Virus record (IMG/VR): IMGVR_UViG_3300035208_002115 | Origin: a virus | Lineage: Duplodnaviria; Caudoviricetes | Length of the DNA: 64,000 bases | Direction: 5' to 3' (one strand) | Shown: positions 10,781-59,373 of the stretch, in pieces | How the letters are laid out: the number at the start of each line of letters is the position of its first letter | How positions within the stretch are numbered: position 1 is the stretch's first letter | Translations under genes and position numbers: made by a program | The notes under the pieces: model-generated | Databases searched by the model: none | What the model saw: the letters and a program-made list of their open reading frames with translations, nothing else | Told to the model about the DNA's origin: nothing

Positions 10781-11170
10781 ATGGAAACAAACTATTTATT
10801 TTTAAATGATTACGCAGGGTTCACTTATGAAGCGGTTGTTGAGGACATAGTTGCCAACTATCAGGTGTCACAATCTTTTGTTGATAACTATCGTATCTTG
10901 GTGGCACATCTTTCTGGTGATGGTGGGTACGAAGAATCTTCTTATTTCTTATTGGTTGAGAAATCTACTGGTAATTTATTTGAAGTTTCTGGTGGTCACT
11001 GTTCCTGTTATGGTTTCGAAGGCCAGTTTGAGCCAGAGATTACTTCGATAGAGTATCTTATTTCAGAACAGTCCTACTTCGGTAGAGACCCTGAAGTAAA
11101 GAAACAAATCGAGATTTGTTTGGTGAAATGGATTCGTTACTTGAAATTGAAAGAAATATTCGAGTTCTAA
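10781..11170 (+). CDS. hypothetical phage protein with C-terminal RxxKL motif
   Basis: GGHCSCYG motif; ends IRYLKLKEIFEF. Confidence 0.7.
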   Translation: METNYLFLNDYAGFTYEAVVEDIVANYQVSQSFVDNYRILVAHLSGDGGYEESSYFLLVEKSTGNLFEVSGGHCSCYGFEGQFEPEITSIEYLISEQSYFGRDPEVKKQIEICLVKWIRYLKLKEIFEF

Positions 11171-11222
11171 ATGAAAGTTTAGGACTCGATTTTTTATATA
11201 TAAAAAGAAAACAACATATTAA

Positions 11223-11780
11223 ATGATTTTTAGTTATATATCATTTATCAAAGAAAACATAAAACATCAATATAAATTTTATAAAAATATTGATAATATT
11301 GTTGATGGTGAACCATTAGTTTATTATAATGTTCCATTTGAATTAGGCGAAAAAGGTATAGGTTTTAGTGATACAGAAGATTGGAAACATTATTTAGGTA
11401 ACCAATATGTTTATGATTATATTAAAGACATTGATATAAAAGAAGCTTTAAAAGAAGACTTATCTAATATAAATATATCTGTTGATTGGACTTCTATAAA
11501 AGAAGATGATATAATAAACAATATATCAGCATATCAAAATAAAAATAAACATTCTTTAAGAATTGCCAAATTAGTTAAAGAGATGTTAGATAACAAACCA
11601 ATAAGACCAGTTTCAATGTTTTTTGATGCGATGTCGTATAATTACGATATAAAGAATAACATTGAAGATGGAAATCATAGAATAAGAGCATTACAATATT
11701 TAAAATATGATGGGTTTCCAGCTTACATATATGGTGGACATTCAAAATATCTTATTGAATATTTAAATCAAAATATTTAG
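11223..11780 (+). CDS. ParB/sulfiredoxin-like domain protein
   Basis: IEDGNHRIRAL motif; N-terminal YxxFIKE motif. Confidence 0.65.
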   Translation: MIFSYISFIKENIKHQYKFYKNIDNIVDGEPLVYYNVPFELGEKGIGFSDTEDWKHYLGNQYVYDYIKDIDIKEALKEDLSNINISVDWTSIKEDDIINNISAYQNKNKHSLRIAKLVKEMLDNKPIRPVSMFFDAMSYNYDIKNNIEDGNHRIRALQYLKYDGFPAYIYGGHSKYLIEYLNQNI

Positions 11781-11891
11781 ATGGGTTTTTTATCAATCTA
11801 AGCATCTATATTTATTATAGAATTTTTTTTATAATATTTTTCATATTATTTTTGGTTCATTATTTTTACTACAAACCAAAAATTTACTACT

Positions 11892-12155
11892 ATGTTTGAG
11901 AACGTGATACTTGCAGAAATAGAAGGTGTTAAATATATACTTTCTGAAGATATAAAATATGGTGATAAAGTTGTTGGGTATTTTGAAGTTGGTAAATATT
12001 GGTTAACTGATTGTATAGCGAAGAACAACTTTGATGAAGGTGACATCAAAAACCAGTTTTTGATTTTCAAAGATGGTATTAGTTGTGGTGTAGCCAACAA
12101 TCCATTCAAACACCAAAGATGGTTCAAGGTAATAGGAACTCTTAAAGAAGTATGA
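11892..12155 (+). CDS. hypothetical protein
   Basis: 87-aa ORF. Confidence 0.55.
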   Translation: MFENVILAEIEGVKYILSEDIKYGDKVVGYFEVGKYWLTDCIAKNNFDEGDIKNQFLIFKDGISCGVANNPFKHQRWFKVIGTLKEV

Positions 12156-12210
12156 TGGTACTAATAAAATATTAGACTTCTTTTTATATATAGAAATAAA
12201 AATATTTTTT

Positions 12211-14297: not shown

Positions 14298-14304
14298 CAA
14301 AAAC

Positions 14305-14385: not shown

Positions 14386-14404
14386 CAAAACAAAAATTAT
14401 CAAT

Positions 14405-15708: not shown

Positions 15709-16080
15709 ATGGAATATATTACTATTACTGAGTATAGGGATGAAAAAATAGACAGGACTATCAGTAAGTCTTTGAATGATTATGTAGACTCATCAATAAA
15801 AAAATTAAAAGATGAGCTTATAGCCAATGAGTTCTCGATAAAATGTAAAAGAATAAATTCAAATTTATATCATTCTATTGGTGTTTGGGGTGTTTGGGGT
15901 GTATATGGTGATTTGAATTACAAAATAAAAAATTCAAAAATTTATTATGTTCAAATATCGTGGCGGGTATCGCATCAAATGAAATTGTATGTATTTACAC
16001 AATATAAAAAATTTGACACATATATAAATTCACTGGAAAGAGAGAGGGTTTTGAAAATAGAAGAATTAGAAATACTATGA
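15709..16080 (+). CDS. hypothetical protein, C-terminal RxxKI motif family
   Basis: ends ERVLKIEELEIL. Confidence 0.75.
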   Translation: MEYITITEYRDEKIDRTISKSLNDYVDSSIKKLKDELIANEFSIKCKRINSNLYHSIGVWGVWGVYGDLNYKIKNSKIYYVQISWRVSHQMKLYVFTQYKKFDTYINSLERERVLKIEELEIL

Positions 16081-16439
16081 CAAATATTGATTATATAGAT
16101 GATGTTGATATAAGAAATCATATAATAGTTTATATTGAGGTTACTTGTAAAATAATACAAAAATTTATCAGTGAACCGAGTTCTAAAGATGTAATAGAAA
16201 TGATGAAATTTATAGATGGTATTGAAACTTATAAATACAAAAATTATCGAGTAGTCTTGGTGTTAAATGATTATAGGGATACACCTAAAATATATAAAGT
16301 GGGATTAGAATTCAGTATAATTAAAGATGGTGATTGGAAAGATTGGAAGAATAGTGATGTAATACATATAATAAATCGTAAAGTGTATACCATATCAAAA
16401 GAAAGAATGATAAAGATTGAAAGATTGAAATTGTTATGA
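16077..16439 (+). CDS. hypothetical protein, C-terminal RxxKI motif family
   Basis: ends ERMIKIERLKLL; ATGA overlap with the previous gene. Confidence 0.75.
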   Translation: MTNIDYIDDVDIRNHIIVYIEVTCKIIQKFISEPSSKDVIEMMKFIDGIETYKYKNYRVVLVLNDYRDTPKIYKVGLEFSIIKDGDWKDWKNSDVIHIINRKVYTISKERMIKIERLKLL

Positions 16440-16801
16440 TTAAAATAGATTTATATAGTGCCACGACTAATAAGCGTATAGAGAATATTTTGAATTACAA
16501 ATTCAAAAGCTATTTATATACTTTGCATAAAAAATTATTAGATTGTAATTTTACGAGAGCTGGTATGATTACTGCGTTAGTATCAGATGATATAGATTAT
16601 CAGTATGATGGATATAATATTGTAATAAAAAAGAAATTTAATTCTTATGGTGAAAGTATTGATAGTGTTCAGGTTTTTTGTATTTTATATAAAATTGAAA
16701 ATGATAATTTAAAATATAAAAGATTACAATCTTTTAGTGTTGAAATACTCTCTCCGACCAGAGAAAGAAAGTTAAAAATTGAAAAACTTGGATTGGTATG
16801 A
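16436..16801 (+). CDS. hypothetical protein, C-terminal RxxKI motif family
   Basis: ends ERKLKIEKLGLV. Confidence 0.75.
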   Translation: MIKIDLYSATTNKRIENILNYKFKSYLYTLHKKLLDCNFTRAGMITALVSDDIDYQYDGYNIVIKKKFNSYGESIDSVQVFCILYKIENDNLKYKRLQSFSVEILSPTRERKLKIEKLGLV

Positions 16802-17160
16802 TTAAAATAACTGAATACAGTAAAAAGGTAAATTCTTTTATTGAAAACGAGTTCAATAATGCTATTGAAAAACAAGTAGATATTTTAGAACAATATTTCA
16901 AGAAAAATAATTATTCAAGTAAGGTTATATCAGCAAGGGCTAATTATATTGTAAATTTTTCATTATATGATTATCATCTTAGGGAAAGTATGCTTATAAA
17001 TTCAACAGAAGAATATCTGGAAGTAATCCATGTATCTTTTTCTTTGTATAGAAATAATTTTGATGGTATGGGTGAGACTATGGTGGATAGAATTACGTAT
17101 GATTTTTTATCTACAACCAAGAAACGGAAATTAAAAATTGAAAAATTAGGATTGGTATGA
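16798..17160 (+). CDS. hypothetical protein, C-terminal RxxKI motif family
   Basis: ends KRKLKIEKLGLV. Confidence 0.75.
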   Translation: MIKITEYSKKVNSFIENEFNNAIEKQVDILEQYFKKNNYSSKVISARANYIVNFSLYDYHLRESMLINSTEEYLEVIHVSFSLYRNNFDGMGETMVDRITYDFLSTTKKRKLKIEKLGLV

Positions 17161-17549
17161 CAGTTCACGATTACGATAAAGAGATTAAAATTCATATTTG
17201 TGGTTATGAATATGAAAAAAATAAAATAATAGAAAATGCTTTTGTTTATCATATTAAAAAAGAAATTTATAATTTCAGGCTTCGTCTTATAAAAACAAAT
17301 TACGCTGTTAAAACAGTTACAGATTATAATAAAAATCGATTTAATTATGATGAATATTATTTAGATATGTTTGCAACGGCCATTTGTGGTTATGAATTAT
17401 CACTGGAATATGTGTTATTTAGCTTTGAACTGCATAAAAGGACTCGAATCCATATACCAGTTGATATACGTGTGACTGATTTCTCCATTAAAATATATCC
17501 ACCGAATATGGAGCGAAAATTGAAGATAAAACAATTAGGGTTGATATGA
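17157..17549 (+). CDS. hypothetical protein, C-terminal RxxKI motif family
   Basis: ends ERKLKIKQLGLI. Confidence 0.75.
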   Translation: MTVHDYDKEIKIHICGYEYEKNKIIENAFVYHIKKEIYNFRLRLIKTNYAVKTVTDYNKNRFNYDEYYLDMFATAICGYELSLEYVLFSFELHKRTRIHIPVDIRVTDFSIKIYPPNMERKLKIKQLGLI

Positions 17550-17911
17550 TTACAATTTATAATCGGGTACGAATTTCGGTTGAGGACGAGTCAAAAATAA
17601 ACAATAAAATAAAAAATATTGTTGAAGAATTAAAATCATTTCTCATCAGAAACAAATTTTACACAGAATCGTTAAAAGATGTTATAATAAATAGTGTGAT
17701 TGATAATGATGATTTACAATTAAAAGTCGATATATATTACAAAAATGAAGATTTTGTAGATGAAGTGGGGTTGATTTTTAGTTTATTTTGGATGAAAAAT
17801 TTTTGGTTAAATGATGATGGTGTTAAACAATTGATAGGTAAAGAAGAAGTAATTATTTACACCAAAAAGAAAGAAAGAATGGTTAAGATTGAGAAACTTG
17901 GTTTGGTTTAA
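17546..17911 (+). CDS. hypothetical protein, C-terminal RxxKI motif family
   Basis: ends ERMVKIEKLGLV. Confidence 0.75.
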   Translation: MITIYNRVRISVEDESKINNKIKNIVEELKSFLIRNKFYTESLKDVIINSVIDNDDLQLKVDIYYKNEDFVDEVGLIFSLFWMKNFWLNDDGVKQLIGKEEVIIYTKKKERMVKIEKLGLV

Positions 17912-17912
17912 T

Positions 17913-18290
17913 ATGGAATATATTACAGCAAATATTCACAGAAAAGATTTGGAACTTATTAACAATCAAATTGATGGTTGGATTAAAGAAATATCAAAAA
18001 TGCTTGTTGAAGGTAAAATTGACAAAATAAATAATAAATATTGTACTTTTCAATATGGGAGATATGTTTTAGAGGGTTGGTCTCGTGGTTTTTTATTTTC
18101 TATACAAGAAAGATTTGAAAGAAAAAGAATAACCTCACGGTTTGGTTACTGCTTCAAATTAAAACATTATCCAGAATATATGAAAAGTAGGTATGAAGGT
18201 GTGTATGTTATTATTGCTGAATATAAACATGTATTTAATCTGATACACGAAGAACGAAAATATAAATTGGAACATCTCGGTATTATATAA
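17913..18290 (+). CDS. hypothetical protein, C-terminal RxxKL motif family
   Basis: ATG 17913 (MEYITA, like MEYITI at 15709); ends ERKYKLEHLGII. Confidence 0.75.
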   Translation: MEYITANIHRKDLELINNQIDGWIKEISKMLVEGKIDKINNKYCTFQYGRYVLEGWSRGFLFSIQERFERKRITSRFGYCFKLKHYPEYMKSRYEGVYVIIAEYKHVFNLIHEERKYKLEHLGII

Positions 18291-18493
18291 TGATTTTATT
18301 ATAATATATTTTTTTATATTTTTATTTTGTTTATTTTTGAAAAAACTAAAGACATGGAAAAGAAAGAAACTGAAAGTAATTTATTAGCTTTAGCAGTTTT
18401 TATATTTGGGTATATTGGTGTGATTTTTTCTTTATGTCTCGGTTACGAGGTTGATATTAAAGTTGTTAAAAAGAATATGAATACAACTTCCAA

Positions 18494-18814
18494 ATGATAT
18501 ATTTCGAATACAATATTGAACCAACGAGTGCAATAACCATAAACCAATGGATTGAAGATTATATCGAAAAAACCATTATTAATATCATTGGTGATAAGAA
18601 GCATGTGTTTATGCCTGTTCAGGAAATCTTTGAATTATTAGATTTTTATAAAGTAAACGCACATCGTATGTTTGATATAAATAGTGAATATTTGTTTATA
18701 TATTTTGATTTGTTCATCATGGAAGGAAAAACTGCTATATATGTAGATAGGTATATTCATGAATTAAATGTTCTTCATGAGCGCAGAAAATTGAAAATTA
18801 GAGATTTAGAATAG
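18494..18814 (+). CDS. hypothetical protein, C-terminal RxxKI motif family
   Basis: ends RRKLKIRDLE. Confidence 0.7.
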   Translation: MIYFEYNIEPTSAITINQWIEDYIEKTIINIIGDKKHVFMPVQEIFELLDFYKVNAHRMFDINSEYLFIYFDLFIMEGKTAIYVDRYIHELNVLHERRKLKIRDLE

Positions 18815-18819
18815 AATTA

Positions 18820-19170
18820 ATGATGGAAAATGATTATAGGATAAAGTTATATTTGTTGCCACATTTAATGGATAAGGTTTCGTACATTAAAAAAGTATTG
18901 AAACAATCAAAATGTACTTCTAAATTTATTGAAAACATTGAACTACCAAATTATGATGAATTAAATATTTTTAGGATACGATATGATTTAATATATTCTT
19001 CAACAAATGAAAAATTAACAGAAGCTAATTTAATTTGTCATGTTGAAGTTCGAACAAATTGTCATATATGTGAATCGGTTACATATAAACATTTAGAAAA
19101 TTTCAAATACAACATATATTCTATTCGTGAAGAAAGAAAACAAAAAATTAAGAAATTGAATTTAATATAA
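18820..19170 (+). CDS. hypothetical protein, C-terminal RxxKI motif family
   Basis: ends ERKQKIKKLNLI. Confidence 0.7.
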   Translation: MMENDYRIKLYLLPHLMDKVSYIKKVLKQSKCTSKFIENIELPNYDELNIFRIRYDLIYSSTNEKLTEANLICHVEVRTNCHICESVTYKHLENFKYNIYSIREERKQKIKKLNLI

Positions 19171-19174
19171 ATAT

Positions 19175-19522
19175 ATGAGCTGGTTTGCATACGGTAAAGA
19201 TTTGAATAATTCTTCATCTTTTCACAGAAAACGAAAAGGTGTTTGGTTAAGATATCATAGTAATCCAGATATTGTAAAGGCGGTCAAGAAAAATGGTAAC
19301 AAACGACTGTTTGAAACTGTTGTCAGAGTTGTTGTGGATGAGTATGATAAGAAAGAAGATAAAATCTGGTTAGAGGTCTGGTGTCAAAATATATTTGACC
19401 CGATTCGAAGGAAACACAGATATAATGTTTTTTATATCTTTGTATCTCCAGATGAAAGCTGGGTATGTGAAGGTGACTTGGGAAAAGGTTTAGAAAATTA
19501 TAAAGATAATAAAGTGTTATGA
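19175..19522 (+). CDS. hypothetical protein
   Basis: 115-aa ORF. Confidence 0.65.
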   Translation: MSWFAYGKDLNNSSSFHRKRKGVWLRYHSNPDIVKAVKKNGNKRLFETVVRVVVDEYDKKEDKIWLEVWCQNIFDPIRRKHRYNVFYIFVSPDESWVCEGDLGKGLENYKDNKVL

Positions 19523-19881
19523 AATATTTCGATGAGAAATTCACAAGAGCTGAGTATCGAGAGATTCATCAAATATTACAGCAAAATTTCAAATACATTG
19601 AAAATAAAATTATCAAGGGGTATAATTTTAACAATTATCAAAAAAGTATTAGATTCTCAAATAAGAAATATATCATTTTGATTCTTAATGCTTTTGATGA
19701 ATACAATATTGATAATGATAATTATTTTACTCTTGAATTACAATTGTTTACTATTAACTATGAAAGTAAAAGAATAGAAGATTTTTGGAAATTTATAGAA
19801 AATGATTACTATGATATACCTTTAATACCAATACGTAGAAGAATGAAAATTAAGAAATTGGGTTTATTAAAAGATAATTGA
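19519..19881 (+). CDS. hypothetical protein, C-terminal RxxKI motif family
   Basis: ends RRRMKIKKLGLLKDN. Confidence 0.7.
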   Translation: MKYFDEKFTRAEYREIHQILQQNFKYIENKIIKGYNFNNYQKSIRFSNKKYIILILNAFDEYNIDNDNYFTLELQLFTINYESKRIEDFWKFIENDYYDIPLIPIRRRMKIKKLGLLKDN

Positions 19882-19887
19882 TATAAT

Positions 19888-20616
19888 ATGAAAGTTTTAG
19901 ATGTCATCGATTTGTCGGTGTACAGAGGCAACAATAAAATTTTAAAATATGTTTCACTTGAAGTATATTCAAATGAAATAGTTGCTATTGTTGGTGCTAA
20001 TGGTTGTGGGAAAACTACATTATTTAATTCGATATCTGGTTTTTTAAGACCTGCCACTGGTAAAATTTTCATCAATGGAGTTGATACAACTTATTTAAAA
20101 CCTCATCAAATAGCAAAACTCGGTGTTAGTAGAACTTTCCAAGATAGGGGCATATTTGAAAATATGTCTATTATGGACGCAACTGAAATAACAGAAACAA
20201 GAAATAATAATTTATTAAAAGATATTTTTAATTTTAAATTAAGAAAAATAGTTAAAAGTAAAGCACTACATAAGTTGAACAAGTTTCTCCCCAATGTTGA
20301 TTATTCAAAAAATTGTGATGAGTTATCGACTGGGCAACAGGCCAAATTAAAATTAGCATCTTTATACACAGAATCCAAACTATTGTTATTAGATGAACCA
20401 ACGGCTGGTGTTGATAAAAATAGTAAGAAAGTTTTATTACAACACATTCAAGATATTTCAAAAAATTGTGCTGTATTGTTGATAGAACATGATATGAATT
20501 TTGTTAAAAAATGTGCTGACAGAATTCTTTATATGGACGATGGTAAATTTATTAGAGAAGTAAAACAGGTGAATAATATAAGAAAAAGGAAAATCGAGAA
20601 TATGGGGGTTTTATGA
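19888..20616 (+). CDS. ABC-type ATP-binding protein (LivG-like)
   Basis: Walker A GANGCGKT, Q-loop RTFQ, signature LSTGQ, Walker B LLLLDEPTAG, H-loop IEHD. Confidence 0.9.
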   Translation: MKVLDVIDLSVYRGNNKILKYVSLEVYSNEIVAIVGANGCGKTTLFNSISGFLRPATGKIFINGVDTTYLKPHQIAKLGVSRTFQDRGIFENMSIMDATEITETRNNNLLKDIFNFKLRKIVKSKALHKLNKFLPNVDYSKNCDELSTGQQAKLKLASLYTESKLLLLDEPTAGVDKNSKKVLLQHIQDISKNCAVLLIEHDMNFVKKCADRILYMDDGKFIREVKQVNNIRKRKIENMGVL

Positions 20617-20945
20617 ATTTTTTTAATATTGATATTGACAAAAATGTTTTAGATTGGGTAAATAATATTGTCAGACATTATATTGTTGAAATAACAAATG
20701 ATGTTCGGGAAAATAATTTTGAGGCTATGTCAATACAATCTTGTGGTTATAATGATAAATTTCTTGGTTATGAAATAATGGTTGACTTTTATATACCAGA
20801 GGCAATAAGCCCAGATGGTACGTATTTTATAACATTCATTTTATATAAGATTAATGAATTTAATGAAACTTATGTTCATCCAATTATACCATTAAGCGAA
20901 GAAAGAAAACAAAAAATTGAAAAATTAGGAATAGATGTTAGTTAA
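20613..20945 (+). CDS. hypothetical protein, C-terminal RxxKI motif family
   Basis: ends ERKQKIEKLGIDVS. Confidence 0.7.
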   Translation: MNFFNIDIDKNVLDWVNNIVRHYIVEITNDVRENNFEAMSIQSCGYNDKFLGYEIMVDFYIPEAISPDGTYFITFILYKINEFNETYVHPIIPLSEERKQKIEKLGIDVS

Positions 20946-21333: not shown

Positions 21334-21660
21334 ATGAATGTAAAGGATAGACAGGTTATTTTAAGAGAATATGCTAAATATTTATGTGAAAAAATACTCA
21401 TTATTAACTCTGAGTATGAGAACGGGTCAATATATTTAGAATTAAAACATTTTTATGAAACTGGTGAAATGTCTTGTTTATTAAGCATACACCAATTCAT
21501 TTCAGCTCATATATCGAATATTCATGTTTTTTATAACGATATTAAAAAACTTCAGAAAGATTTTAACAAAGATTTGTACATTCAGTCTTATGATATATTC
21601 GAAAAAAATTACATTCGAATACTAAAACTAAAACAATTAGAAATAAATAAACTATTATGA
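21334..21660 (+). CDS. hypothetical protein, C-terminal RxxKL motif family
   Basis: ends IRILKLKQLEINKLL. Confidence 0.65.
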   Translation: MNVKDRQVILREYAKYLCEKILIINSEYENGSIYLELKHFYETGEMSCLLSIHQFISAHISNIHVFYNDIKKLQKDFNKDLYIQSYDIFEKNYIRILKLKQLEINKLL

Positions 21661-27865: not shown

Positions 27866-28642
27866 ATGAACCCTGACATTATTGGCACATTGGTGGAATT
27901 TAAAATGGGTAATATCTCAATAGAAGAAGCCCATGATAGAATAAATAATAATAATTCTCTAAAATTAACAATTGATAAATTTTTAAATACTGATATAAGT
28001 TCAATATACTTACTGGGAAAAAGGTCGATTCGTGATTATAAAAAACTTTTTTCTATAATACTAAGATTGGAAGATGACATGCCTGAATTGAGAATAGAAC
28101 CAATAGAATACCAAATTTTTGCATACGAATTTCAACGAATGTTAATACCAAACCCAGCTTATCGGGAAATGATTAACAATGGTGACTCTTTTTTTAAATT
28201 AGGGTTTAAGGATTACGATGATGATACAATTATAAAAATATGTGAAAATTATGTTAAACTGACATTAAAAGAATATGAGAAGGTTGATACTAATGAAATC
28301 TCGCATATGTCAGTATTAATGAATATACTCGGATTCATTTTTGATGACGGTGATGGGTTTGAAAATGCTTTCCTTTATTTAATTAAAAAAATAAATTCTT
28401 TTCAATTTGGAACACAGTTTAATATATCTGATATTCTTTCATTTGATTTAAATTGGAAACACTTATTTCACAACTATATGGTAGATTTCACTAAGATTGG
28501 GTTTATGGTTAATAACCCGATTGGTATTTATACAAAACAGTATAATATACCAGAAAATTTATATTTTACAGATTTAGATACAGATGAAAAAATAATAAAA
28601 TTACGGAGAAAACTTAAACTTGAAGAAATATTAGAATACTAA
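27866..28642 (+). CDS. hypothetical protein, C-terminal RxxKL motif family
   Basis: ends RRKLKLEEILEY. Confidence 0.7.
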   Translation: MNPDIIGTLVEFKMGNISIEEAHDRINNNNSLKLTIDKFLNTDISSIYLLGKRSIRDYKKLFSIILRLEDDMPELRIEPIEYQIFAYEFQRMLIPNPAYREMINNGDSFFKLGFKDYDDDTIIKICENYVKLTLKEYEKVDTNEISHMSVLMNILGFIFDDGDGFENAFLYLIKKINSFQFGTQFNISDILSFDLNWKHLFHNYMVDFTKIGFMVNNPIGIYTKQYNIPENLYFTDLDTDEKIIKLRRKLKLEEILEY

Positions 28643-28652: not shown

Positions 28653-29105
28653 ATGAACTTATTACACAACATAGATGAAGATTTAAACAAACTTTTGAGT
28701 AAATTATATGAATACATAATTTGTAGTAGTAGATATACATCTGGTCAATTTACAGTTTCATATGAAGCTAATGTCAAAAAAAAGATGAACCTGTATTTTT
28801 TTGGAAAAGGTTATAATACTAAACAATTAGTATTTGATATGTTTAATGATTGTAGAATAGGTGGTAAAATAATACCACAAAAAATAATACCATCAATTGT
28901 TTATGATATAAATAAGACATCCATAACTGGTTATCTTTCTTTTTTAGTTCGCTGTGGTTATATAACAAAATGTGACAATAAAACAGGAGAATATAAATTA
29001 AATTGTCGCATACCTGCCAATTTGAAATTAACAGATATTAAAGATAAAGACAATTTGAAAAAAATACAAAGGTCTGTAAAAATTAAAACACTTGGTATAA
29101 AATAA
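28653..29105 (+). CDS. hypothetical protein, C-terminal RxxKI motif family
   Basis: ends QRSVKIKTLGIK. Confidence 0.7.
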   Translation: MNLLHNIDEDLNKLLSKLYEYIICSSRYTSGQFTVSYEANVKKKMNLYFFGKGYNTKQLVFDMFNDCRIGGKIIPQKIIPSIVYDINKTSITGYLSFLVRCGYITKCDNKTGEYKLNCRIPANLKLTDIKDKDNLKKIQRSVKIKTLGIK

Positions 29106-29112: not shown

Positions 29113-29445
29113 ATGAATCATGATTTTGAAATGCCATTAAATTATTCTTTAAGATTCGAACAGAATTTAAAAGAATACAAATCGTTGAATGAATTTATAA
29201 CTTCAATGGAAAATTCTATGATGTCTATCGGTTCACTGATAGAATCTATACGGGTGGTGTGTGGTGGTTTTAAAACTGATGAAAGAATATATGTTATTAT
29301 AAGGAATTTAAAAGAAGGAAAAGTTATAGATTTTGAAGGGAATGTAGAAGATGTTGATAGGAATCAATCAGTGCTTATTTACCCATCAACCAGTTTGAAA
29401 CGCTTGGTTAAACTTGATGAAATATTTGGAGATGGACTTAAATGA
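29113..29445 (+). CDS. hypothetical protein, C-terminal RxxKL motif family
   Basis: ends KRLVKLDEIFGDGLK. Confidence 0.65.
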   Translation: MNHDFEMPLNYSLRFEQNLKEYKSLNEFITSMENSMMSIGSLIESIRVVCGGFKTDERIYVIIRNLKEGKVIDFEGNVEDVDRNQSVLIYPSTSLKRLVKLDEIFGDGLK

Positions 29446-29723
29446 AAAATAGTTCCAGAAATATTAATACATTGGCTAATATTTTAGCCATCTATTCAGA
29501 TGATAATGGAATCATTAGCTTCTCTAAACTACATGAGGTTATATCCAATACCATTAAAATATCCGAATCTGAAATACAATCATTCATACAACTATTAGAA
29601 GAAAAGAACATAATAACTCTTATAACTAATAATATGGTTGTTGGTGATATAAATTTTAAAGTCAAAACAATAAAAGAAATAAGACAACTAAAGATAAACG
29701 AAATTTTTGATATTAATGAGTGA
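29442..29723 (+). CDS. hypothetical protein, C-terminal RxxKI motif family
   Basis: ends IRQLKINEIFDINE. Confidence 0.65.
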   Translation: MKNSSRNINTLANILAIYSDDNGIISFSKLHEVISNTIKISESEIQSFIQLLEEKNIITLITNNMVVGDINFKVKTIKEIRQLKINEIFDINE

Positions 29724-38647: not shown

Positions 38648-38663
38648 TTTATATTTTTATTTT

Positions 38664-39542
38664 TTACAGTATGTTTTTAATTTTAGCCATTCGAGACAAA
38701 TTCTTTATACTCTTTTCATCTGAAATATTTATTCGTCTAAACCCTTTATAAGAAACACTCCCATTGTCTATTATCATATATCTATTTTCATCCACAAACA
38801 AAGCATCAATATCCATATCAATATTAAATTTGAAGAAACTGCCTATATTTGTTTCGAAATATTTTTCGATACTAATTGATTCAAATTCTCTTTTTTTAAC
38901 ATTTGCGAATATCAGACAATCAGTTTTATAAAAAACCAAAAAATCGCCAAAATATTCTATTAAAGCTTTATAAATGTATTGGTTATAAAGATTTAACACA
39001 TTTAAACCATTAAAGTCACACTGGTATATATTAATTTTCTTATTATAATAAAGAACAAATAGATAGTTTATAAAATCTTTGATTAATTTGAAATTATCCG
39101 ACTTTTGTAAATAATCAATATGTTCTAATATATTGTGTATTATAATACCAAAACATTCATCATCAAAAATTATTTTATCATTTAACCAAAATGTATTTAA
39201 TATGTTTGGATATAATAAATCAATATCCATTTTATTAGAATTAACTATTCTATTCTCATAAACCTTATTTAAGTAAACAATATTTTTTTTATCATTCACA
39301 ACTTCCATATTGGATATAGTCTGTAAAAATTTATCATAAATGAAATCAAAATATTTTGTTTTTCGAGTTTCTTTATAATCAGAAATCTGATATGATGACA
39401 CCGACACATGGGCTAATAATTCCTTACGAATATTATACCATGTATCGTAATCTATTTTTATATCATCTTCCAAGTGTTCAAAAACCGATAATATAACATC
39501 TATTATGTGCTTTTTACTGTCCATTACTCTTTTTAAATCCAA
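38664..39542 (-). CDS. hypothetical protein with degenerate family-B polymerase palm-like motifs; C-terminal RxxKI motif
   Basis: DIDLLYPNIL, KDFINYLF, YKTDCLIF; ends SRMAKIKNIL. Confidence 0.45.
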   Translation of the reverse strand: MDLKRVMDSKKHIIDVILSVFEHLEDDIKIDYDTWYNIRKELLAHVSVSSYQISDYKETRKTKYFDFIYDKFLQTISNMEVVNDKKNIVYLNKVYENRIVNSNKMDIDLLYPNILNTFWLNDKIIFDDECFGIIIHNILEHIDYLQKSDNFKLIKDFINYLFVLYYNKKINIYQCDFNGLNVLNLYNQYIYKALIEYFGDFLVFYKTDCLIFANVKKREFESISIEKYFETNIGSFFKFNIDMDIDALFVDENRYMIIDNGSVSYKGFRRINISDEKSIKNLSRMAKIKNIL

Positions 39543-41455: not shown

Positions 41456-42106
41456 ATGAAATACCTAAATAATTATATAGATTTTGTGTCTGAATCAGTT
41501 GAAGAATTTGTAGAATTGGCTGCTGATGTGAATATATTAGAATCAATTGTAACTGATTCAGAATCGTTATTAAAATCTATTCAAGCTAAAGAAGAAGATT
41601 TATATAGTACATTTGAGTTGAATCCAGAAAAATTCCCTCGTAATATGATAATTGAAAAATTATATAATTCACCGACATTCAATAAAAAGTTAGTTTCTAA
41701 GAAATTGAAAAAGTCAACAATGGAAGAAACTGAGGATATGGAAACTTTTTTGGAAAACATTTTAGATGTCAAATTTTTTTTGATACACGAACAAGATAAA
41801 AGTAATTTGGATAAACCAGAATTTATTGTTTTCCAATCTAAAAAAAGAGAAAGTTCAACATGGACTGAAATAAAATTATATTCAGTTCATGATGACATTA
41901 GAAATTTTTATGATAGATTAACTAATAAAACAGTGGAGTTGAAAAAGGGTGATAAGACCTATATTTATTTTACCAGTAATTCAGGTAACAACTGGCAGCT
42001 TCAGAATCTTGAAGTTGCTGATAATATATTTAAAGATTTACTGGATAATGAAGAAATAAAAATGATTTTAAGAGATAAAGATATTACTATTACAATTATA
42101 TCATAA
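41456..42106 (+). CDS. hypothetical protein (N-terminal YLNNYIDFVSE motif)
   Basis: 216-aa ORF; AATATATA at 41443. Confidence 0.7.
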   Translation: MKYLNNYIDFVSESVEEFVELAADVNILESIVTDSESLLKSIQAKEEDLYSTFELNPEKFPRNMIIEKLYNSPTFNKKLVSKKLKKSTMEETEDMETFLENILDVKFFLIHEQDKSNLDKPEFIVFQSKKRESSTWTEIKLYSVHDDIRNFYDRLTNKTVELKKGDKTYIYFTSNSGNNWQLQNLEVADNIFKDLLDNEEIKMILRDKDITITIIS

Positions 42107-45157: not shown

Positions 45158-45490
45158 TTAATAATCAAATATTTCTTTTAATTTTTTCTTTCGTTCTTCA
45201 ACTAAATAATATCGTTTCAATTTATTTTTCAAAACACCATCTTTGGTGTATTCTAATATATTTGTAGTGTTAATAAATGGTGGTATATCATGAATCTTCC
45301 TGTATTCACCTCGTATTACATCTTCCAGAACACCCAATAATGTTAAGCTCCGTCTATACACATCTAAACTTGGTGAAGGAAAATAATTTACCAAATCTTT
45401 TCTCAAAATTAATACACCAACTTCTAATTTATTGATGTATTCTACAATTTCAGAAAAATAACTATAATCACTTAATTTATTCTTTGCCAT
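45158..45490 (-). CDS. hypothetical protein, C-terminal RxxKL motif family
   Basis: ends ERKKKLKEIFDY. Confidence 0.65.
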   Translation of the reverse strand: MAKNKLSDYSYFSEIVEYINKLEVGVLILRKDLVNYFPSPSLDVYRRSLTLLGVLEDVIRGEYRKIHDIPPFINTTNILEYTKDGVLKNKLKRYYLVEERKKKLKEIFDY

Positions 45491-45948: not shown

Positions 45949-46558
45949 GTCTATAATGATAATTATGTGTTTTTGTTTTTATTACATTGTAATTATATCG
46001 GGATAATAATTCCTCAATTGCCTTAACTTCTTCATCCAAGCTTCTAATATTTTCGAAAATTATAATTTTTGGGATTGGGTTACAACGAACGACCTGAGAT
46101 AAAATTATTCTATTATAACCCTCGGTGTTTAAATATAAAATATCATATTTATTAATAAAATATTTTTTTATAATATGTTCATATGGTACACATTCAACTG
46201 GTGTCGATACAATATTATCTTCAGATATTCTATGTCTTATTAAATTAATCTTATCTAATGATGAAATGTGTTTGGTTATTTCTTTAGTGACAGTTGAAAC
46301 TTTAAACAATTCCTGTGTACCATAATTCTTAGAAATGGCAACATTCTCAAAATATAATTTATAATAACCAGTATAGTTGTCAATAAGCTTTAAAAACATA
46401 TCCTGATTTGGTTCTATTAATACACCTTCCCAATCATGTTTTGTTATGTATGGGTATAAAATATCATTATATATACCATCACTTGCACCTATTTCAACAA
46501 AAAATACACTATGGTACAAGATATTCATCTTGCTTAATATCAATTCTATCGTCTTCAT
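45908..46558 (-). CDS. FkbM-family methyltransferase
   Basis: FVEIGASDG, WEGVLIEP, ENVAIS, LNTEGY. Confidence 0.8.
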   Translation of the reverse strand: MKTIELILSKMNILYHSVFFVEIGASDGIYNDILYPYITKHDWEGVLIEPNQDMFLKLIDNYTGYYKLYFENVAISKNYGTQELFKVSTVTKEITKHISSLDKINLIRHRISEDNIVSTPVECVPYEHIIKKYFINKYDILYLNTEGYNRIILSQVVRCNPIPKIIIFENIRSLDEEVKAIEELLSRYNYNVIKTKTHNYHYRHENNFTNSSNIEE

Positions 46559-48275
46559 TTGTTTTAATATCGGAAAATTGTGTGTTTATTACTTTAATAA
46601 CTCGGTCAAAATTGTTAGTATCAACATCTAAAATACCGTGATGCATAGTTATGACATTCGTATTAAGGTCTATCGATAACTTTTTCAGTAATTTAATAAG
46701 CATTGATATGTATTCAGTGTCAATAGATACAAATATTTCGTCTAAGAACAAAATGTTAATAGATTTCATACTTCTTATCATCTTAATATAAGAAAATGCT
46801 ATTATAATATTTATAATTTTCATTTCACCATTCGATAATACTTCTGGATTGATTTTAGTGATGCCAAACTCATAAACAGTGGCGTTGAAATCGTCATTCA
46901 ATACTGCCCTGTATTTAAAATCAATTTCATTTAAAAATTCATCAATATATTGATTTATAGGTTTGACCAAACTTCTAATAATACTTTTCCTTATTCCAGT
47001 ATCATCGAATAGATTTATTAATTTTTCATAATCATCTTTTTTCTTATTGGACTTGTCCAATTCAGTAGTTAAAATAATATTTTTATTTTTTAGTTCTGTG
47101 ATTTTATTCTGTAAACTGTCGGCTGTGATATTATTAGTATCAGATTTTTCTGCTGACAGATATTCTTTTTTTATATTTTCAAGTTCCAACTTTAATTTAT
47201 TATTCAATTCCGCATAATTATTACGTTTTCTGATAACAACATTATAAGAAACCTCAGTTTCTCTACCTTCACGGTTAACCTTATTTATTTCTTCGTTGAG
47301 GTATTCAACTCTTTTATTGTTTGATTCTTTAGTTTTATAATAAACAGTTAATTGTTCTATGTGTGAATGGTCTTTTAACTTAGTATTACATAAAGGACAA
47401 TTTCCAGATTCAAATACTTTTATTTTTTCATCAAGAAGTGAATTATCATTTGTTAAGGCCGATATTTCTTCTTTTAATATTTTTATTTTATTTTTTAGTT
47501 CTTGTAATTTTTCACTTATCGTGGAATATTCGATATCAATTTTTCTAACTTCTTCTTTTATATGTTTACGTTTTTCCGATTTTTCCTGACCATCTTTAAT
47601 CAATGCAACCATTTTTTCCTGTTTAGAAGTGGACACTTGTGCATAAATTATTTCAATAGTGGATGAATATTCTTCTATTAGATTATTATTGTTTAATATT
47701 TCATCTGTTAGAGCTTCAATTTTTTTCAATAAATTTTTAAGTAAATCCTTTGTAATAGATAAATATGAATCTAATTTTTCAAGATTGAATATTTTATTCA
47801 ATAGATTTTTCTTATCAACTGATTGTAATTGAATAAAATTTAAGAAATCATTTATACTCATCGATATAAATGATTTAAACGTATCGTAGTTGAACCCTAT
47901 AAGTTTATCTCTATCATCATCAGTTAGGGTCTTAAATCGTTCTGTATATGGCTTGTCGTTTAATTTAACATCAAATGCATTGGGGTTGACATTTCGTTGG
48001 ATATTTATTTTCTGTTCGTTGTTGTTAATAAAATCAACAATAACTTCAAGATTCTTATTTCTTCTGTTTGGTAAATCGATAAGAGGAATTGACTTTTTAT
48101 TTTTCCCTCTTACTTTGGAATAAATAGCCAAATCTATCGATTCTAAAATAGACGACTTACCAGCACCAGTTCTACCTTGTAATAGAATTAGTTCTGGCTT
48201 CTCAGAAAACTTAACAACCTGTTGTTTATTTCCGTAAGACTTAAAATTTTTGAATCTTATTTCTTTTATAATCAT
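46509..48275 (-). CDS. SbcC/Rad50-like (T4 gp46-type) recombination ATPase
   Basis: FKNFKSYGN, GRTGAGKS, coiled coil with CPLC zinc hook, LSNGE, LFLDE. Confidence 0.92.
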   Translation of the reverse strand: MIIKEIRFKNFKSYGNKQQVVKFSEKPELILLQGRTGAGKSSILESIDLAIYSKVRGKNKKSIPLIDLPNRRNKNLEVIVDFINNNEQKINIQRNVNPNAFDVKLNDKPYTERFKTLTDDDRDKLIGFNYDTFKSFISMSINDFLNFIQLQSVDKKNLLNKIFNLEKLDSYLSITKDLLKNLLKKIEALTDEILNNNNLIEEYSSTIEIIYAQVSTSKQEKMVALIKDGQEKSEKRKHIKEEVRKIDIEYSTISEKLQELKNKIKILKEEISALTNDNSLLDEKIKVFESGNCPLCNTKLKDHSHIEQLTVYYKTKESNNKRVEYLNEEINKVNREGRETEVSYNVVIRKRNNYAELNNKLKLELENIKKEYLSAEKSDTNNITADSLQNKITELKNKNIILTTELDKSNKKKDDYEKLINLFDDTGIRKSIIRSLVKPINQYIDEFLNEIDFKYRAVLNDDFNATVYEFGITKINPEVLSNGEMKIINIIIAFSYIKMIRSMKSINILFLDEIFVSIDTEYISMLIKLLKKLSIDLNTNVITMHHGILDVDTNNFDRVIKVINTQFSDIKTNEDDRIDIKQDEYLVP

Positions 48276-48694: not shown

Positions 48695-48928
48695 TTAATT
48701 TCTTAATTTAAATCCAAGTTGTTCTCTTTCCTTGGGTGAAAGTACAATTTCATTCTGGTCTAATTCTACATATTGACCATCATTTCCTTCCCACACATCA
48801 AAAACAGTGTCTAAAGACTTCACACCATCATCACCCATAAAAGTGACTTTATCACCAACTTTATATTTGTATTCACTTTCTGAGTTGGTTTCATTGATAA
48901 AATTAATAAAATTCAATAATTGTTTCAT
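48695..48928 (-). CDS. hypothetical protein (N-terminal FINFINE motif)
   Basis: 77-aa ORF. Confidence 0.65.
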   Translation of the reverse strand: MKQLLNFINFINETNSESEYKYKVGDKVTFMGDDGVKSLDTVFDVWEGNDGQYVELDQNEIVLSPKEREQLGFKLRN

Positions 48929-48939
48929 ATTTATTTCTT

Positions 48940-49383
48940 TTATTTTGTTATTTCAGTTTCTTTAAAATAATCGTCAGGACTATTTTCATTTACTTTCCAT
49001 TCATCGTGAGACATCAATTTAGTAGTGAAAAAATCTAATTCTTCTATTTTAATAATTTTGAACTTCTGTGGATGTAAATAATAAATATTTAATAGTCTGT
49101 CAAATGCGAATTGCAATCTCTTATAAGTTCTTGGGGATATCATACCACTTGGATATGGTAGTACTACTATATTATTAATTTCATCAATATTATCGAAAAA
49201 ATTTGTATGCTGTTCCTGTATATTATATACAACTGGATTATCAAAATAAATATTAATGAGTTCTATTGATTGTTCTTCAGTCCTACTACCATATGTTAAT
49301 TTAGGATGGAAAAAATAAATATGTATTTTTTCGGTAATATCTTCTTTTAAAAAATTTATAAAATTATTAACCTTTTTCATCAT
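48940..49383 (-). CDS. hypothetical protein (N-terminal FINFLKE motif)
   Basis: 147-aa ORF. Confidence 0.65.
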   Translation of the reverse strand: MMKKVNNFINFLKEDITEKIHIYFFHPKLTYGSRTEEQSIELINIYFDNPVVYNIQEQHTNFFDNIDEINNIVVLPYPSGMISPRTYKRLQFAFDRLLNIYYLHPQKFKIIKIEELDFFTTKLMSHDEWKVNENSPDDYFKETEITK

Positions 49384-56589: not shown

Positions 56590-56613
56590 TGTAATTCAAA
56601 AAAAAATTATTTT

Positions 56614-57474
56614 ATGTTCAGGGAAATAAACAATATTTATCTTTTAAATTTAGAAAAACGAGCTGACCGTTTAAATGATTGTATAATGCAATCATTAAAA
56701 TACGATTTCACACTTGATATAGTAAAGGGTGTGGACGGGGATGAACTGAATTTAAAAGAACTGTTGAAAAATAAAACTATTAATGATGAATTTTTTTCAC
56801 CAGATGGTCACCATCTTTCTATGGGTGTATACGGATGTGCGCTGTCACACTATAATGCATATTTGAAGATGATTCAAGATGATGTTGAAATGGCTTTAAT
56901 ATTCGAAGACGATTTTGTAATAAATACAATATTCAATGCCCAAAGGTATTATGAGAATATAAAGGAAGAAATATTTGCATCAGATTGGGATATATTATTC
57001 TTAGGTAAAAATAAAACCCACGTTGTAGGTGAACATATAACTGAGCATTTAATAAAGACCGATGAAAGTTGGGTTCATAAACCAGTCGATGAACGGGAAA
57101 TGGCAACAGCACCATTTCAACTTTGGGGCGCACATGCTTATATTGTAAGACGAAAAGCTGCTGAATATTTAATGGAAAACACATTACCCATCAGAATGCC
57201 AGCCGATGTGTGGTTACAATATCTTTCATACAAAAGTGACCTTAAAATATATTGCACTGACCATTCTATTGTTATGCAGAATTCTGAACACGAAGTAGAA
57301 AAAAGGGAATTGGAAGGATATGAATTTTCTTATCAGGAAGAAAAATTGATGATTGATTCAGATACCATCTGGAACAGAAATAAACGTGGTGATTTATATT
57401 GGTTACAAATGCCAGACTTTACTGAGTCAATAAGAAAAGATAAAGAATTTTTTGTATTTAAATTAAAGAAATAA
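56614..57474 (+). CDS. glycosyltransferase family 25
   Basis: YLLNLEKRADR, GVDG, GCALSH, LIFEDD, GAHAYIV, PADVW. Confidence 0.88.
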   Translation: MFREINNIYLLNLEKRADRLNDCIMQSLKYDFTLDIVKGVDGDELNLKELLKNKTINDEFFSPDGHHLSMGVYGCALSHYNAYLKMIQDDVEMALIFEDDFVINTIFNAQRYYENIKEEIFASDWDILFLGKNKTHVVGEHITEHLIKTDESWVHKPVDEREMATAPFQLWGAHAYIVRRKAAEYLMENTLPIRMPADVWLQYLSYKSDLKIYCTDHSIVMQNSEHEVEKRELEGYEFSYQEEKLMIDSDTIWNRNKRGDLYWLQMPDFTESIRKDKEFFVFKLKK

Positions 57475-57834
57475 TTATGGATATTGCAGGTAAATATGGT
57501 GAAAATGGTATTATAATTAACAAATTAGTACAACGAATTTTGTCTATTGTAGTAGTGCGTTATTTAATCAGCAAATTCACAATGAAAAATACAGGTAAAT
57601 GCTTATTTGTGGATAAAGTGAACGGTAGAGAAGTTTGGTTATACATCGACTGTTTCAAAAAAGAATATATGGCTCAATCAAAATGGGAAATGCGTTGTGA
57701 ACGTGCTTAATACCCCATAAATACTCATAAAAATGGAGAACTATATATTGTGAATACTTAAATATTGTATATCCAACTAAATAATTTTTTTAGTATTTTT
57801 TTTTCTATTATATTTGTAAAAAAAAATTATCTAT

Positions 57835-58347
57835 ATGTCTGAAAACGTACAAAAAATAAAAGAAGAAAATGCTGAGATAATGGAAATGCCTCTATTTAAA
57901 GATATGTATAGTAGATTGGTAGATGGTTATAAATACAAATCTCGGACAGATGATGAGTTAAAAGAAATAGCAAAATGTTTATATCATGGTAGTATCTTTA
58001 GTGATAGACATTTAGGTACACATAATCAACATATGCTTCCAAGCATCTTTATGCCCTTGGCTTTAGGTGCATTTCCAGATATAACATGGGACATGGAAAG
58101 CCGAGAAGGTAAAATTATTAATTTAATTTTATGTGATTTAGAACCAGAATATAATAAACGCAGGGATAAATATAAAAAGGATATAGGATTTATTTACGAA
58201 TACGTTAAAAACGCTGGCCCGATGGCTATCAACGGGTTTCCCATCTTCACATCCTTTAATATGTTATCAAAAAAAGATACAGATAGAATGTTCTTATATT
58301 ACGATAAATATAAAGAACTTCAAGAAAAAATAAATGACCAACTATGA
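57835..58347 (+). CDS. hypothetical protein
   Basis: 170-aa ORF, IFMPLALG..AGPMAINGFPIF. Confidence 0.7.
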   Translation: MSENVQKIKEENAEIMEMPLFKDMYSRLVDGYKYKSRTDDELKEIAKCLYHGSIFSDRHLGTHNQHMLPSIFMPLALGAFPDITWDMESREGKIINLILCDLEPEYNKRRDKYKKDIGFIYEYVKNAGPMAINGFPIFTSFNMLSKKDTDRMFLYYDKYKELQEKINDQL

Positions 58348-58913
58348 GTAATACCGACAATGAACTCATATTTAAAAGTATTCAAAAAAGTCATTTAAGT
58401 GGTTGGTATTACGAATCACCCTATAAAACATTAGGTTGTATATTACACTGGTTGTGTGTATTTGGTTTAATTGAATTAAAAGAACAGACCATTATTACAA
58501 ATGATGAAATAATTTGTGACGGTGATATCATTCTTAAATATACATGGGACGACCAATTTCTCATGCCTGTTTTTCAAACAATAAATGCAGAATATTTTTT
58601 TATTGAAGAAAAGCAAATGATATTTATAGAACAAGCCAAATTAAAAGCTAATGTCGTATTGGAGCATTTGACGTTACCAGACAGGGGATTTAGGTTTTGG
58701 TCTCAGAATACTGATAATAATACAAAATTATATACAGGTGAAATAGTATATAGTCCAATATTATATACAGATGATAATGATGAAGCTATTCAATTTTCCA
58801 GATATACCAACTCTAAAGAAGTAGCATCATTTAGTGAAATGATGAAGTATTACAAAAATCTATATAAAAATTATTACGATGAAGAAGAAACAACGGATGA
58901 TATACTCGATTAA
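58344..58913 (+). CDS. hypothetical protein
   Basis: 189-aa ORF. Confidence 0.65.
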   Translation: MSNTDNELIFKSIQKSHLSGWYYESPYKTLGCILHWLCVFGLIELKEQTIITNDEIICDGDIILKYTWDDQFLMPVFQTINAEYFFIEEKQMIFIEQAKLKANVVLEHLTLPDRGFRFWSQNTDNNTKLYTGEIVYSPILYTDDNDEAIQFSRYTNSKEVASFSEMMKYYKNLYKNYYDEEETTDDILD

Positions 58914-59373
58914 TAATATATCTGAGGAACAAATAATGGTCATTGCAAAAGCATTGGATACTTATTGTAGACTTGGCCTGTTACAATTAGACCATGCAAT
59001 CATTGATGATATACGTTTTGGTGAAAATTTTGATTTTACAAAAAATCTAACAGCTATTGATAATCATATAACTGAAATAAAAAGATTAATTATACAAAAC
59101 AATTCCAAGGAATCAATAAAAGAAGCATCGTTGTTAGGTGATTTGAGAGGCTGGAGTTTGGGTATAACCAGTGATGGTGTACCTGAAAATGCTCTTAGAG
59201 CATATGAAATGAGTAAAGCTATTTATCATAAACGGTGGAAAGAAAATCCACCAAAACATTATTCTGTTGATGGTAATGAAGGTTTAAAGTTGACATCTGA
59301 TATGAGTATAGTTGTTGAAAGTGAGTCTGAAAGACAAGTTAAAATAAAAAATATATTAAATGATGCTGTTTAA
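58879..59373 (+). CDS. hypothetical protein, C-terminal RxxKI motif family
   Basis: ends ERQVKIKNILNDAV. Confidence 0.65.
   Translation: MKKKQRMIYSINNISEEQIMVIAKALDTYCRLGLLQLDHAIIDDIRFGENFDFTKNLTAIDNHITEIKRLIIQNNSKESIKEASLLGDLRGWSLGITSDGVPENALRAYEMSKAIYHKRWKENPPKHYSVDGNEGLKLTSDMSIVVESESERQVKIKNILNDAV

Follow-up and report, generated by a model that had tools for sequence, protein, structure and literature searches.

The window analysed here is a stretch of 64,000 nucleotides (bases 125370–189369) of one 675,678 bp contig with 27% G+C, which belongs to a virus of the Caudoviricetes (IMG/VR record IMGVR_UViG_3300035208_002115). It encodes a series of otherwise unrelated proteins that share a short C-terminal tag of the form R-x-x-K-[IL]-x-x-[IL], together with a metallopeptidase fused to a von Willebrand factor A (vWA) domain and a MoxR-like ATPase. 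Genes were called with a simple greedy procedure, which gave 1136 genes genome-wide (92% coding), 125 of them within the window; the standard genetic code is compatible with the long open reading frame (ORF) statistics of the contig. In the phage collection the contig is most closely related to uncultured huge phages of 634–735 kb, and the closest relative in IMG/VR is a 640 kb genome with direct terminal repeats. DNA of the window is also present in landfill and groundwater metagenomes, and no RNA data set is listed for it. A T4 gp46/SbcC-like recombination endonuclease subunit, encoded at 46509–48275 on the minus strand, places the phage among the T4-like replication/recombination lineages. 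Coordinates refer to the window unless they are marked as genome coordinates.

A protein was counted as tagged if the pattern R..[KR][ILVM]..[LIMV] started no more than 20 residues from its end. Exactly 22 of the 125 genes in the window qualify, and they are the ones that a sequence-only reading of the window had named; in translation all of them terminate in R-x-x-K-[IL]-x-x-[ILM]. When the residues of these proteins were shuffled, C-terminal matches numbered 0.61 on average (maximum 4 in 300 shuffles). Genome-wide, 167 C-terminal matches were observed against 4.08 expected (maximum 9 in 100 shuffles), with no enrichment inside the proteins (57 internal matches against 47.5 expected). The per-position match density is ∼37-fold higher at C-termini than internally, so that the motif is not merely as common within these proteins as at their ends. 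As controls, N-terminal 21-mers matched the regular expression only seven times and the reversed motif matched only 11 C-terminal 21-mers. About one in seven of the phage proteins (∼14%) carries the tag.

The 164 tags of the genome follow the consensus (I/L/E)0-R1-K2-x-K4-[IL]5-[KE]6-E7-[IL]8-[FLG]9-x-[DE]. The conserved positions 1, 4, 5, 8 and 9, with spacing i, i+3, i+4, i+7 and i+8, share one face of a helix. AlphaFold2, run with a paralogue alignment on the 123-residue product of ORF 15709–16080, predicts a helix over the tag (residues 109–119) with a predicted local distance difference test score (pLDDT) of 85–90, the highest in the model. The helix is followed by a carboxylate at a fixed range of distances: the first Asp/Glu or the chain-end COOH falls at positions 9–12 in 154 of the 164 tags (94%), and among the 64 tails that continue for at least four residues, 54 have Asp or Glu at positions 10–12, against 35% expected (p = 1e-15). 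An example of a tag with its chain end is ...EERKKKLKEIFDY-COOH. The genome was compared with five related genomes, each taken whole (the 640 kb relative, LR756502, LR745206, LR756504 and LR756501), and the carboxylate rule is valid in all five of these six genomes that bear the tag. Upstream of R1 the tag profile shows no conspicuous conserved cleavage motif. Counted from the tag to the end of the chain, the net charge amounts to no more than +0.4 to +0.8. The tag had been described at the outset as an amphipathic signal; the one-face helix is supported by the AlphaFold2 model, but the near-neutral charge and the invariant Arg and Lys argue for a specific recognition motif and not for a generic amphipathic anchor.

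On the plus strand of the window, the tag RYLKLKEIFEF (11135–11170) ends ORF 10781–11170 (129 residues) and RVLKIEELEIL (16045–16080) ends ORF 15709–16080 (123 residues), the first of a tandem array of ∼120-residue proteins. There follow RMIKIERLKLL (16404–16439; ORF 16077–16439), RKLKIEKLGLV in two copies (16766–16801, ORF 16436–16801; 17125–17160, ORF 16798–17160), RKLKIKQLGLI (17514–17549; ORF 17157–17549), RMVKIEKLGLV (17876–17911; ORF 17546–17911), RKYKLEHLGII (18255–18290; ORF 17913–18290), RKLKIRDLE (18785–18814; ORF 18494–18814), RKQKIKKLNLI (19135–19170; ORF 18820–19170) and RRMKIKKLGLLKDN (19837–19881; ORF 19519–19881). Further along the same strand are RKRKIENMGVL (20581–20616) on an ABC ATPase (ORF 19888–20616, 242 residues), RKQKIEKLGIDVS (20904–20945; ORF 20613–20945), RILKLKQLEINKLL (21616–21660; ORF 21334–21660), RKLKLEEILEY (28607–28642; ORF 27866–28642, 258 residues), RSVKIKTLGIK (29070–29105; ORF 28653–29105), RLVKLDEIFGDGLK (29401–29445; ORF 29113–29445), RQLKINEIFDINE (29682–29723; ORF 29442–29723) and, directly upstream of the peptidase–vWA gene, RQVKIKNILNDAV (59332–59373; ORF 58879–59373). 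The minus strand carries RDLKINDILS (34561–34593; ORF ending at 34561), RMAKIKNIL (38664–38693; ORF 38664–39524 or 39542, the start of which overlaps the end of an AAA+ ATPase gene at 39514–40698) and RKKKLKEIFDY (45158–45193; ORF 45158–45490). The tandem array (15709–19881) looks like one very divergent paralogue family, with ∼20% identity between the bodies and with the Arg, Lys and Leu of the tag as the near-invariant columns. A local spelling in the region 15709–20945 ends in ...KLGL[VI]-COOH, in which position 9 is Gly and an acidic residue is lacking, and is closer to the spelling of LR756502 than to the commoner ...EIFxD of this genome. A fold search with the tagged 123-residue paralogue gave no Foldseek match below E 0.1, and the VIA Z stayed under 5.

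The tag is a peptide and not a nucleic-acid element. All six Arg codons are used at the invariant Arg (AGA 72, CGA 36, AGG 27, CGT 12, CGG 8 and CGC 6), and the Ile/Leu positions are spelled ATA, ATT, TTA, CTT and TTG. Because the Arg codons are so varied, the bodies are unrelated and tags are more alike than bodies between orthologues, selection must act on the peptide. In 96 orthologue pairs with the 640 kb relative, identity is 0.78 in the tag and 0.54 in the body; part of this gap is explained by the regular expression having been demanded in both orthologues, and positions 2, 3, 6 and 9, which the expression leaves free, are still 66–78% identical. Conservation at the DNA or RNA level, as a linker for recombination, a promoter, a terminator or a device for translational coupling to the next gene, might be suspected from the many tagged genes that overlap the next start codon (ATGA) and from the GGA contained in GL[VI] endings. 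It is already contradicted by the codon usage and by the position of the stop codon, 0 to 12 codons beyond a motif that is always in frame, on both strands and in varied contexts, and we give it virtually no credence.

The same peptide sits on unrelated proteins, as the sequence-only reading had stated. With the tails removed, 161 tagged bodies fall into 156 BLASTP components at E 1e-4. Pfam and PHROGs searches with ten tagged proteins of the window were empty for eight of them; a ninth matched PHROG families alone, whose function is unknown or doubtful. The ABC ATPase is readily recognised (PF00005, E 6.5e-27) and illustrates the portability of the tag: its orthologue in the 640 kb relative has 222 residues, is 80% identical and is untagged, and the 20 additional residues of the present protein are the tag. 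Among orthologues, gain or loss of the tag was seen nine times in one direction and five times in the other.

The carriers form a distinct class of small, fast-evolving, mostly soluble, non-core proteins without the upstream motif WATATATA. Their median length is 115 residues (maximum 527). Hydrophobic 19-mers occur in eight of the 164 tagged proteins and in 111 of the 972 untagged ones, and membership of the six-genome core is one of 164 versus 91 of 972 (p = 8e-6). The tagged proteins diverge faster, with a median orthologue identity of 58% compared with 77% for the untagged. WATATATA lies upstream of eight of 164 tagged genes, 24 of 61 genes for leader-bearing proteins and 180 of 914 other genes (tagged versus others, p = 5e-7). 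The leader, MK..(F/L)..F(L/I).E, is an N-terminal sequence resembling the capsid targeting sequence (CTS) of phage T4; it occurs genome-wide on about 60 proteins (58–61), is four-fold enriched in the first ten residues, and is represented in the window by the genes at 749–1968, 7428–7763, 32769–33194, 41456–42106 and 48695–49383. The motif [AT]ATATATA is found no more than 60 nt upstream of 39% of the leader genes versus 5% of the tagged genes, most commonly in the fuller form TTAATATATA. Leader and tag had been taken to be mutually exclusive. They coincide on three proteins (61 leader-like and 164 tagged, ∼9 expected; odds ratio 0.29, p = 0.025), a weak avoidance that is statistical, not absolute, and was measured with a loose regular expression. 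The two-address protein sorting code proposed on this basis is plausible in view of the WATATATA-type motif that is frequent before leader genes and rare before tagged ones, but it has to do without strict exclusivity.

The upstream motif also bears on the idea of a packaging address, by which tagged proteins would be loaded into the capsid to be injected. In its favour, homology to the N-terminal part of the Gp23-like capsid protein is seen in tiny tagged proteins whose genes adjoin that of the capsid protein, and an assembly role has been proposed for phage MoxR/vWA–peptidase pairs (Iyer et al., 2021; PMC7824862). The depletion of WATATATA before tagged genes, the existence of a separate CTS-like leader for such a role and the number of cargo proteins, which at ∼160 would be unprecedented, make a packaging address highly unlikely. 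The T4 CTS is, like the tag, a short portable address on unrelated phage proteins; it is N-terminal, it belongs to late proteins, and the prohead protease cleaves it; the CTS-like leader of the present phage is on other proteins. A T4-type CTS was rejected as an identity for the tag because the tag is C-terminal and its carriers are depleted of WATATATA.

Arrays of tiny tagged proteins (45–95 residues) lie outside the window, at genome coordinates 223218–224383 and 540998–543260. The 95-residue protein of the first array clusters by BLAST with the Gp23-like major capsid protein (genome 543309–545015). Weak Gp23 matches were found in the frame 223568–223783 of the first array and in the frame 542195–542308 beside the second array, which adjoins the capsid gene; one of these matches falls in the N-terminal part of the family. 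The relatives likewise encode tagged capsid-fragment proteins.

Each tag-bearing genome spells the tag in its own dialect. The present genome (164 of 1136 genes tagged) uses RKxK[IL]..[IL][FL], the 640 kb relative (112 of 988) has the same spelling, LR756502 (136 of 985) and LR745206 (141 of 967) use R[DEN]xK[IL]..[IL][LG] and usually end one residue later, and LR756504 (103 of 945) uses RKx[KR]I..L. Position 2 is Lys in this genome, the 640 kb relative and LR756504, and Asp, Glu or Asn in LR756502 and LR745206, in which position 6 is often Asn or Asp. Orthologous tags are respelled with the genome, as in RREKLLEIFGD versus RDYKLSKLGI, RAYKIYTIFGDDDD versus RDYKIQKIME and RKLKMEKL versus RDSKLNKL. 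A concerted genome-wide respelling is what a single co-evolving reader would predict, and it also speaks against unspecific binding to membrane or DNA. The sequence-only reading had the tag route many proteins to one hub; the dialect shifts favour such a common reader, which we infer from them. On balance, the tag is probably a docking helix, a portable short linear motif that is read by one co-evolving partner, with a MoxR/vWA pair as the leading candidate.

These comparisons also leave little room for a generic amphipathic helix with affinity for membrane or nucleic acid, in the manner of the membrane-targeting sequences of MinD and FtsA. The tag is indeed a C-terminal amphipathic helix with Lys and Arg. 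Its net charge is close to zero, however, two relatives have Asp, Glu or Asn at position 2 and often Asn or Asp at position 6, R1 and K4 are invariant whereas membrane anchors keep a pattern and not particular residues, and an acidic group is required after the helix. On these grounds a MinD/FtsA-type membrane helix was rejected, and we consider any generic helix very improbable.

Another reading of the dialects is that they mirror the hosts, the tag being read by a host component such as DnaK (through the J-domain proteins of the phage), RNA polymerase, the ribosome or the sliding clamp. It is in keeping with dialects that differ among phages probably infecting different hosts, with two J-domain proteins that match the phyletic pattern of the tag, and with the basic residues around hydrophobic ones, which resemble the known preferences of Hsp70. 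The strict R1/K4 and the carboxylate rule are, however, more specific than Hsp70 peptide preferences, and the tag mismatches the clamp-binding consensus (QL[SD]LF; Qxx[ILM]xx[FY][FY]), so that a host reader of this kind appears improbable. A sliding-clamp motif (QL[SD]LF, PIP box or T4 gp43 tail) was discarded because the profile of the 164 tags is without Gln or paired aromatic residues.

One genome of the set, LR756501 (735 kb), has no dialect, with six of 1052 genes tagged, which is the chance level. Of the four distant genomes, LR756501 stands nearest to the present one in most of the 92 six-way core genes, so that loss of the tag is its most likely history. In LR756501, 41 proteins end in a different motif, DPYGEExW (...DPYGEE[DEN]W...), which has 64 further internal copies there and none in the other five genomes. 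Examples are at 499642–505983 and 552409–560466 of LR756501.1, and the carriers include several truncated versions of core proteins, the Gp23-like capsid protein among these.

The candidate reader is encoded by two plus-strand genes. The first (59448–61151) encodes a protein of 567 residues consisting of an HExxH zincin metallopeptidase, a low-complexity linker and a vWA domain with a complete MIDAS, or metal-ion-dependent adhesion site (PF13203, PF09967). The second (62349–63641), 1.2 kb downstream, encodes a MoxR-like AAA+ ATPase of 430 residues with a C-terminal eight-helix domain (PF00004). The zincin domain matches PF13203 with E 1e-15, and its His118, Glu119 and His122 recur in no fewer than 90% of the 94 homologues; in the MIDAS, Asp444, Ser446, Ser448, Thr499 and Asp525 are invariant in 94 of 94 and visible in the six-genome alignment. 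The MoxR protein scores 26.2 bits with PF00004, above the cut-off, and 22.4 with bpMoxR, below the cut-off. An AlphaFold2 model of it (pLDDT 80) is matched by Foldseek to NorQ (E 2e-5), RavA, CHU_0153 and MCM, with low TM-scores (0.25–0.4). With moderate confidence, we assign the 430-residue protein to the helix-2-insert (MoxR) clade of AAA+ ATPases. The pair has the phage MoxR/metallopeptidase–vWA architecture described by Iyer et al. (2021), namely a MoxR AAA+ protein, a vWA domain with MIDAS and a fused HExxH zincin.

In the mechanism that we propose, the tag would form a one-face α-helix, (hydrophobic)-R1-K2-x-K4-[IL]5-x-x-[IL]8-[FLG]9, with a carboxylate one to three residues after it, provided by Asp/Glu or by the free end of the chain. 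The carriers would be accessory proteins that are not transcribed from WATATATA-type, probably late, promoters, and the tag would dock all of them onto one reader that co-evolves with it. The peptidase–vWA protein (59448–61151) and the MoxR ATPase (62349–63641) could act together as a remodelling machine, in which the hydrophobic face of the tag and R1/K4 would occupy a groove and the carboxylate would complete the Mg2+ coordination of the vWA MIDAS. Alternatively, the tail might bind the MoxR ring, as the C-terminus of NorD does. ATP hydrolysis would then remodel, release, trim or destroy the client. In MIDAS sites the sixth ligand is an acidic one supplied by the target, and the extreme C-terminus of NorD docks hydrophobically on the AAA+ ring of NorQ (PMC13036017); the carboxylate rule would accordingly suit a MIDAS reader, given this source of the sixth ligand. 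Both the identity of the reader and the outcome for the client are speculative. The MoxR/vWA pair is put forward tentatively, a different phage protein is likewise a possibility, and a host protein seems unlikely. In its most far-reaching and still tentative form, the proposal is that huge phages possess a proteome-wide address system of their own, in which the tag is read through the MIDAS of the peptidase–vWA/MoxR machine, a seventh of the proteome is remodelled, trimmed or destroyed on cue, and tag and reader drift jointly, so that every lineage keeps a private dialect, one relative having replaced the tag by DPYGEExW.

The comparative data on the pair are mixed. In tag-less LR756501 its two genes rank second and fourth of the 92 core genes for anomalous divergence by bit score, and the tag recurs in many of 80 IMG/VR loci that were recovered via MoxR. 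Several observations weigh against assigning the reading of the tag to the pair. When LR756501-specific changes are counted at columns that are invariant in the five tag-bearing genomes, vWA ranks only 14th of 92 and MoxR falls outside the top 15. The pair is far more widespread than the tag, with N4 gp24-like matches in hundreds of phages, and it is intact in LR756501; the pair is therefore not sufficient for the tag. Some 20 of the 80 MoxR-retrieved loci show no tag within 21 kb, and the co-occurrence in the rest is partly circular because the loci were found via MoxR. The tag-less sample is a single genome, and the dialect groups track phylogeny. For the latter reason the charge-swap columns (Glu329 and Asp292 of MoxR, 230 and 487 of vWA) are leads only and not independent evidence. 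A virion-assembly role has been proposed for the pair (PMC7824862). Nine other genes are also present in all five tag-bearing genomes and absent from LR756501, among them those for a ClpS homologue, two J-domain proteins, an Acb1-like 2H phosphoesterase, a NUDIX protein and the product of ORF 37526–38647 (minus strand). Taken together, the support for the pair as the tag reader is comparative and suggestive only. A complex prediction with the peptidase–vWA protein (68 of the 94 homologue sequences used), Mg, Zn and the last 45 residues of ORF 45158–45490 gave an ipSAE of 0.00, which counts neither way.

The zincin peptidase fused to the vWA protein also invites the reading of the tag as a degron, by which ∼160 early accessory or takeover proteins would be marked and then cleared by a protease of the host or the phage when they have served their purpose; this overlaps the docking explanation if the peptidase–vWA/MoxR machine is itself the protease. 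The C-terminal position, as in ssrA and other degrons, would suit this function, as would the non-core, fast-evolving nature of the tagged genes without a late-type upstream motif and the ClpS homologue found in every one of the five tag-bearing genomes but not in the tag-less one. ClpS, however, recognises N-termini and not C-terminal helices, a search of the phage for ClpP found none, and an invariant Arg/Lys helix at a measured distance from a carboxylate is unlike known bacterial C-degrons. We regard the degron as unlikely. In the phage, the AAA_3 profile yielded only a score below its cut-off. The ClpS gene lies inside a run of tagged genes; it and the genes for the two J-domain proteins (genome 573782–574078, 487287–487862 and 286921–287571) are absent or barely detectable in LR756501.

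A short linear motif common to the clients of one hub is a known principle. With MIM1 of ESCRT-III and the MIT domain of Vps4, and with VBM/VIM and p97, several clients that one ATPase serves have in common a short C-terminal amphipathic helix in which basic and hydrophobic positions are conserved. In the present case neither an MIT nor a p97-N domain was identified, and the carriers are an order of magnitude more numerous. NorQ–NorD and other MoxR–vWA remodellers serve a single dedicated client (cNOR), whereas the present tag is proteome-wide. Among phages, the MoxR AAA+/metallopeptidase–vWA pair is known from group 2.2 jumbo phages, for which no client tag was described (Iyer et al., 2021; PMC7824862). 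That pair and the N4 gp24-like ATPases share with the present genes the two-gene module, the domain architecture and intact motifs, and they occur also in phages without this tag. A close parallel is with the vWA–MoxR conflict systems, in which a zincin metallopeptidase accompanies small proteins that diverge rapidly except for a conserved peptide at the C-terminus (Kaur, Burroughs, Iyer and Aravind, 2020; PMC7159879). As in those systems, a zincin and a vWA–MoxR pair are found here with variable small carriers of a conserved C-terminal peptide. The conflict systems, however, have one or a few precursors per operon, are from multicellular bacteria and use the motifs FxSxx, RxD or acidic runs; here, ∼160 carriers are dispersed over a phage genome, the peptide is a helical R-x-x-K-[IL]-x-x-[IL], the peptidase is fused to the vWA domain, and cleavage of the tag is hypothetical. 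Searches for papers on huge phages or megaphages with C-terminal motifs and on vWA–MoxR peptidases, and one recent preprint, yielded no description of the tag. The scale (a seventh of the viral proteome), the helix-plus-carboxylate form and the lineage dialects are not known from earlier work.

One tag common to ∼160 unrelated proteins offers a way into the greater part of the 'dark' accessory proteome of huge phages, and identification of the hub through it could sort hundreds of ORFans into one pathway. The reader, be it the widespread MoxR/vWA–peptidase pair or another protein, would gain a defined client set, and the tag may become a transferable peptide handle once the reader is known. 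The dialect shifts amount to a natural experiment in the co-evolution of motif and reader.

Two further phage proteins were considered as readers and set aside. The 373-residue product of ORF 37526–38647 (minus strand) shares the phyletic pattern of the tag but has no obvious features of a reader; several long hydrophobic stretches in the alignment indicate that it may be a membrane protein. Its gene belongs to an operon-like run on the minus strand (37526–40698) together with those of the tagged 286-residue protein and an AAA+ ATPase (39514–40698), which has an unknown N-domain of 200 residues and is conserved in six of six genomes. The other, a Bcs1-like AAA protein encoded outside the window (genome 632267–633565), is a full-length homologue of the mitochondrial folded-protein translocase Bcs1 (BCS1_N and AAA domains, E 1e-37 to 6sh3). 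It was rejected because it is not conserved: the 640 kb relative has a broken remnant and the other genomes have no clear counterpart, the comparison with LR745206 giving only a weak match to the AAA core (E 3.9e-5, 25% identity). The core gene most diverged in LR756501 also lies outside the window (genome 397781–400267); it encodes an 828-residue fusion of a GNAT acetyltransferase, a region with a weak ART-PolyVal match and a CCA-adding/poly(A) polymerase head.

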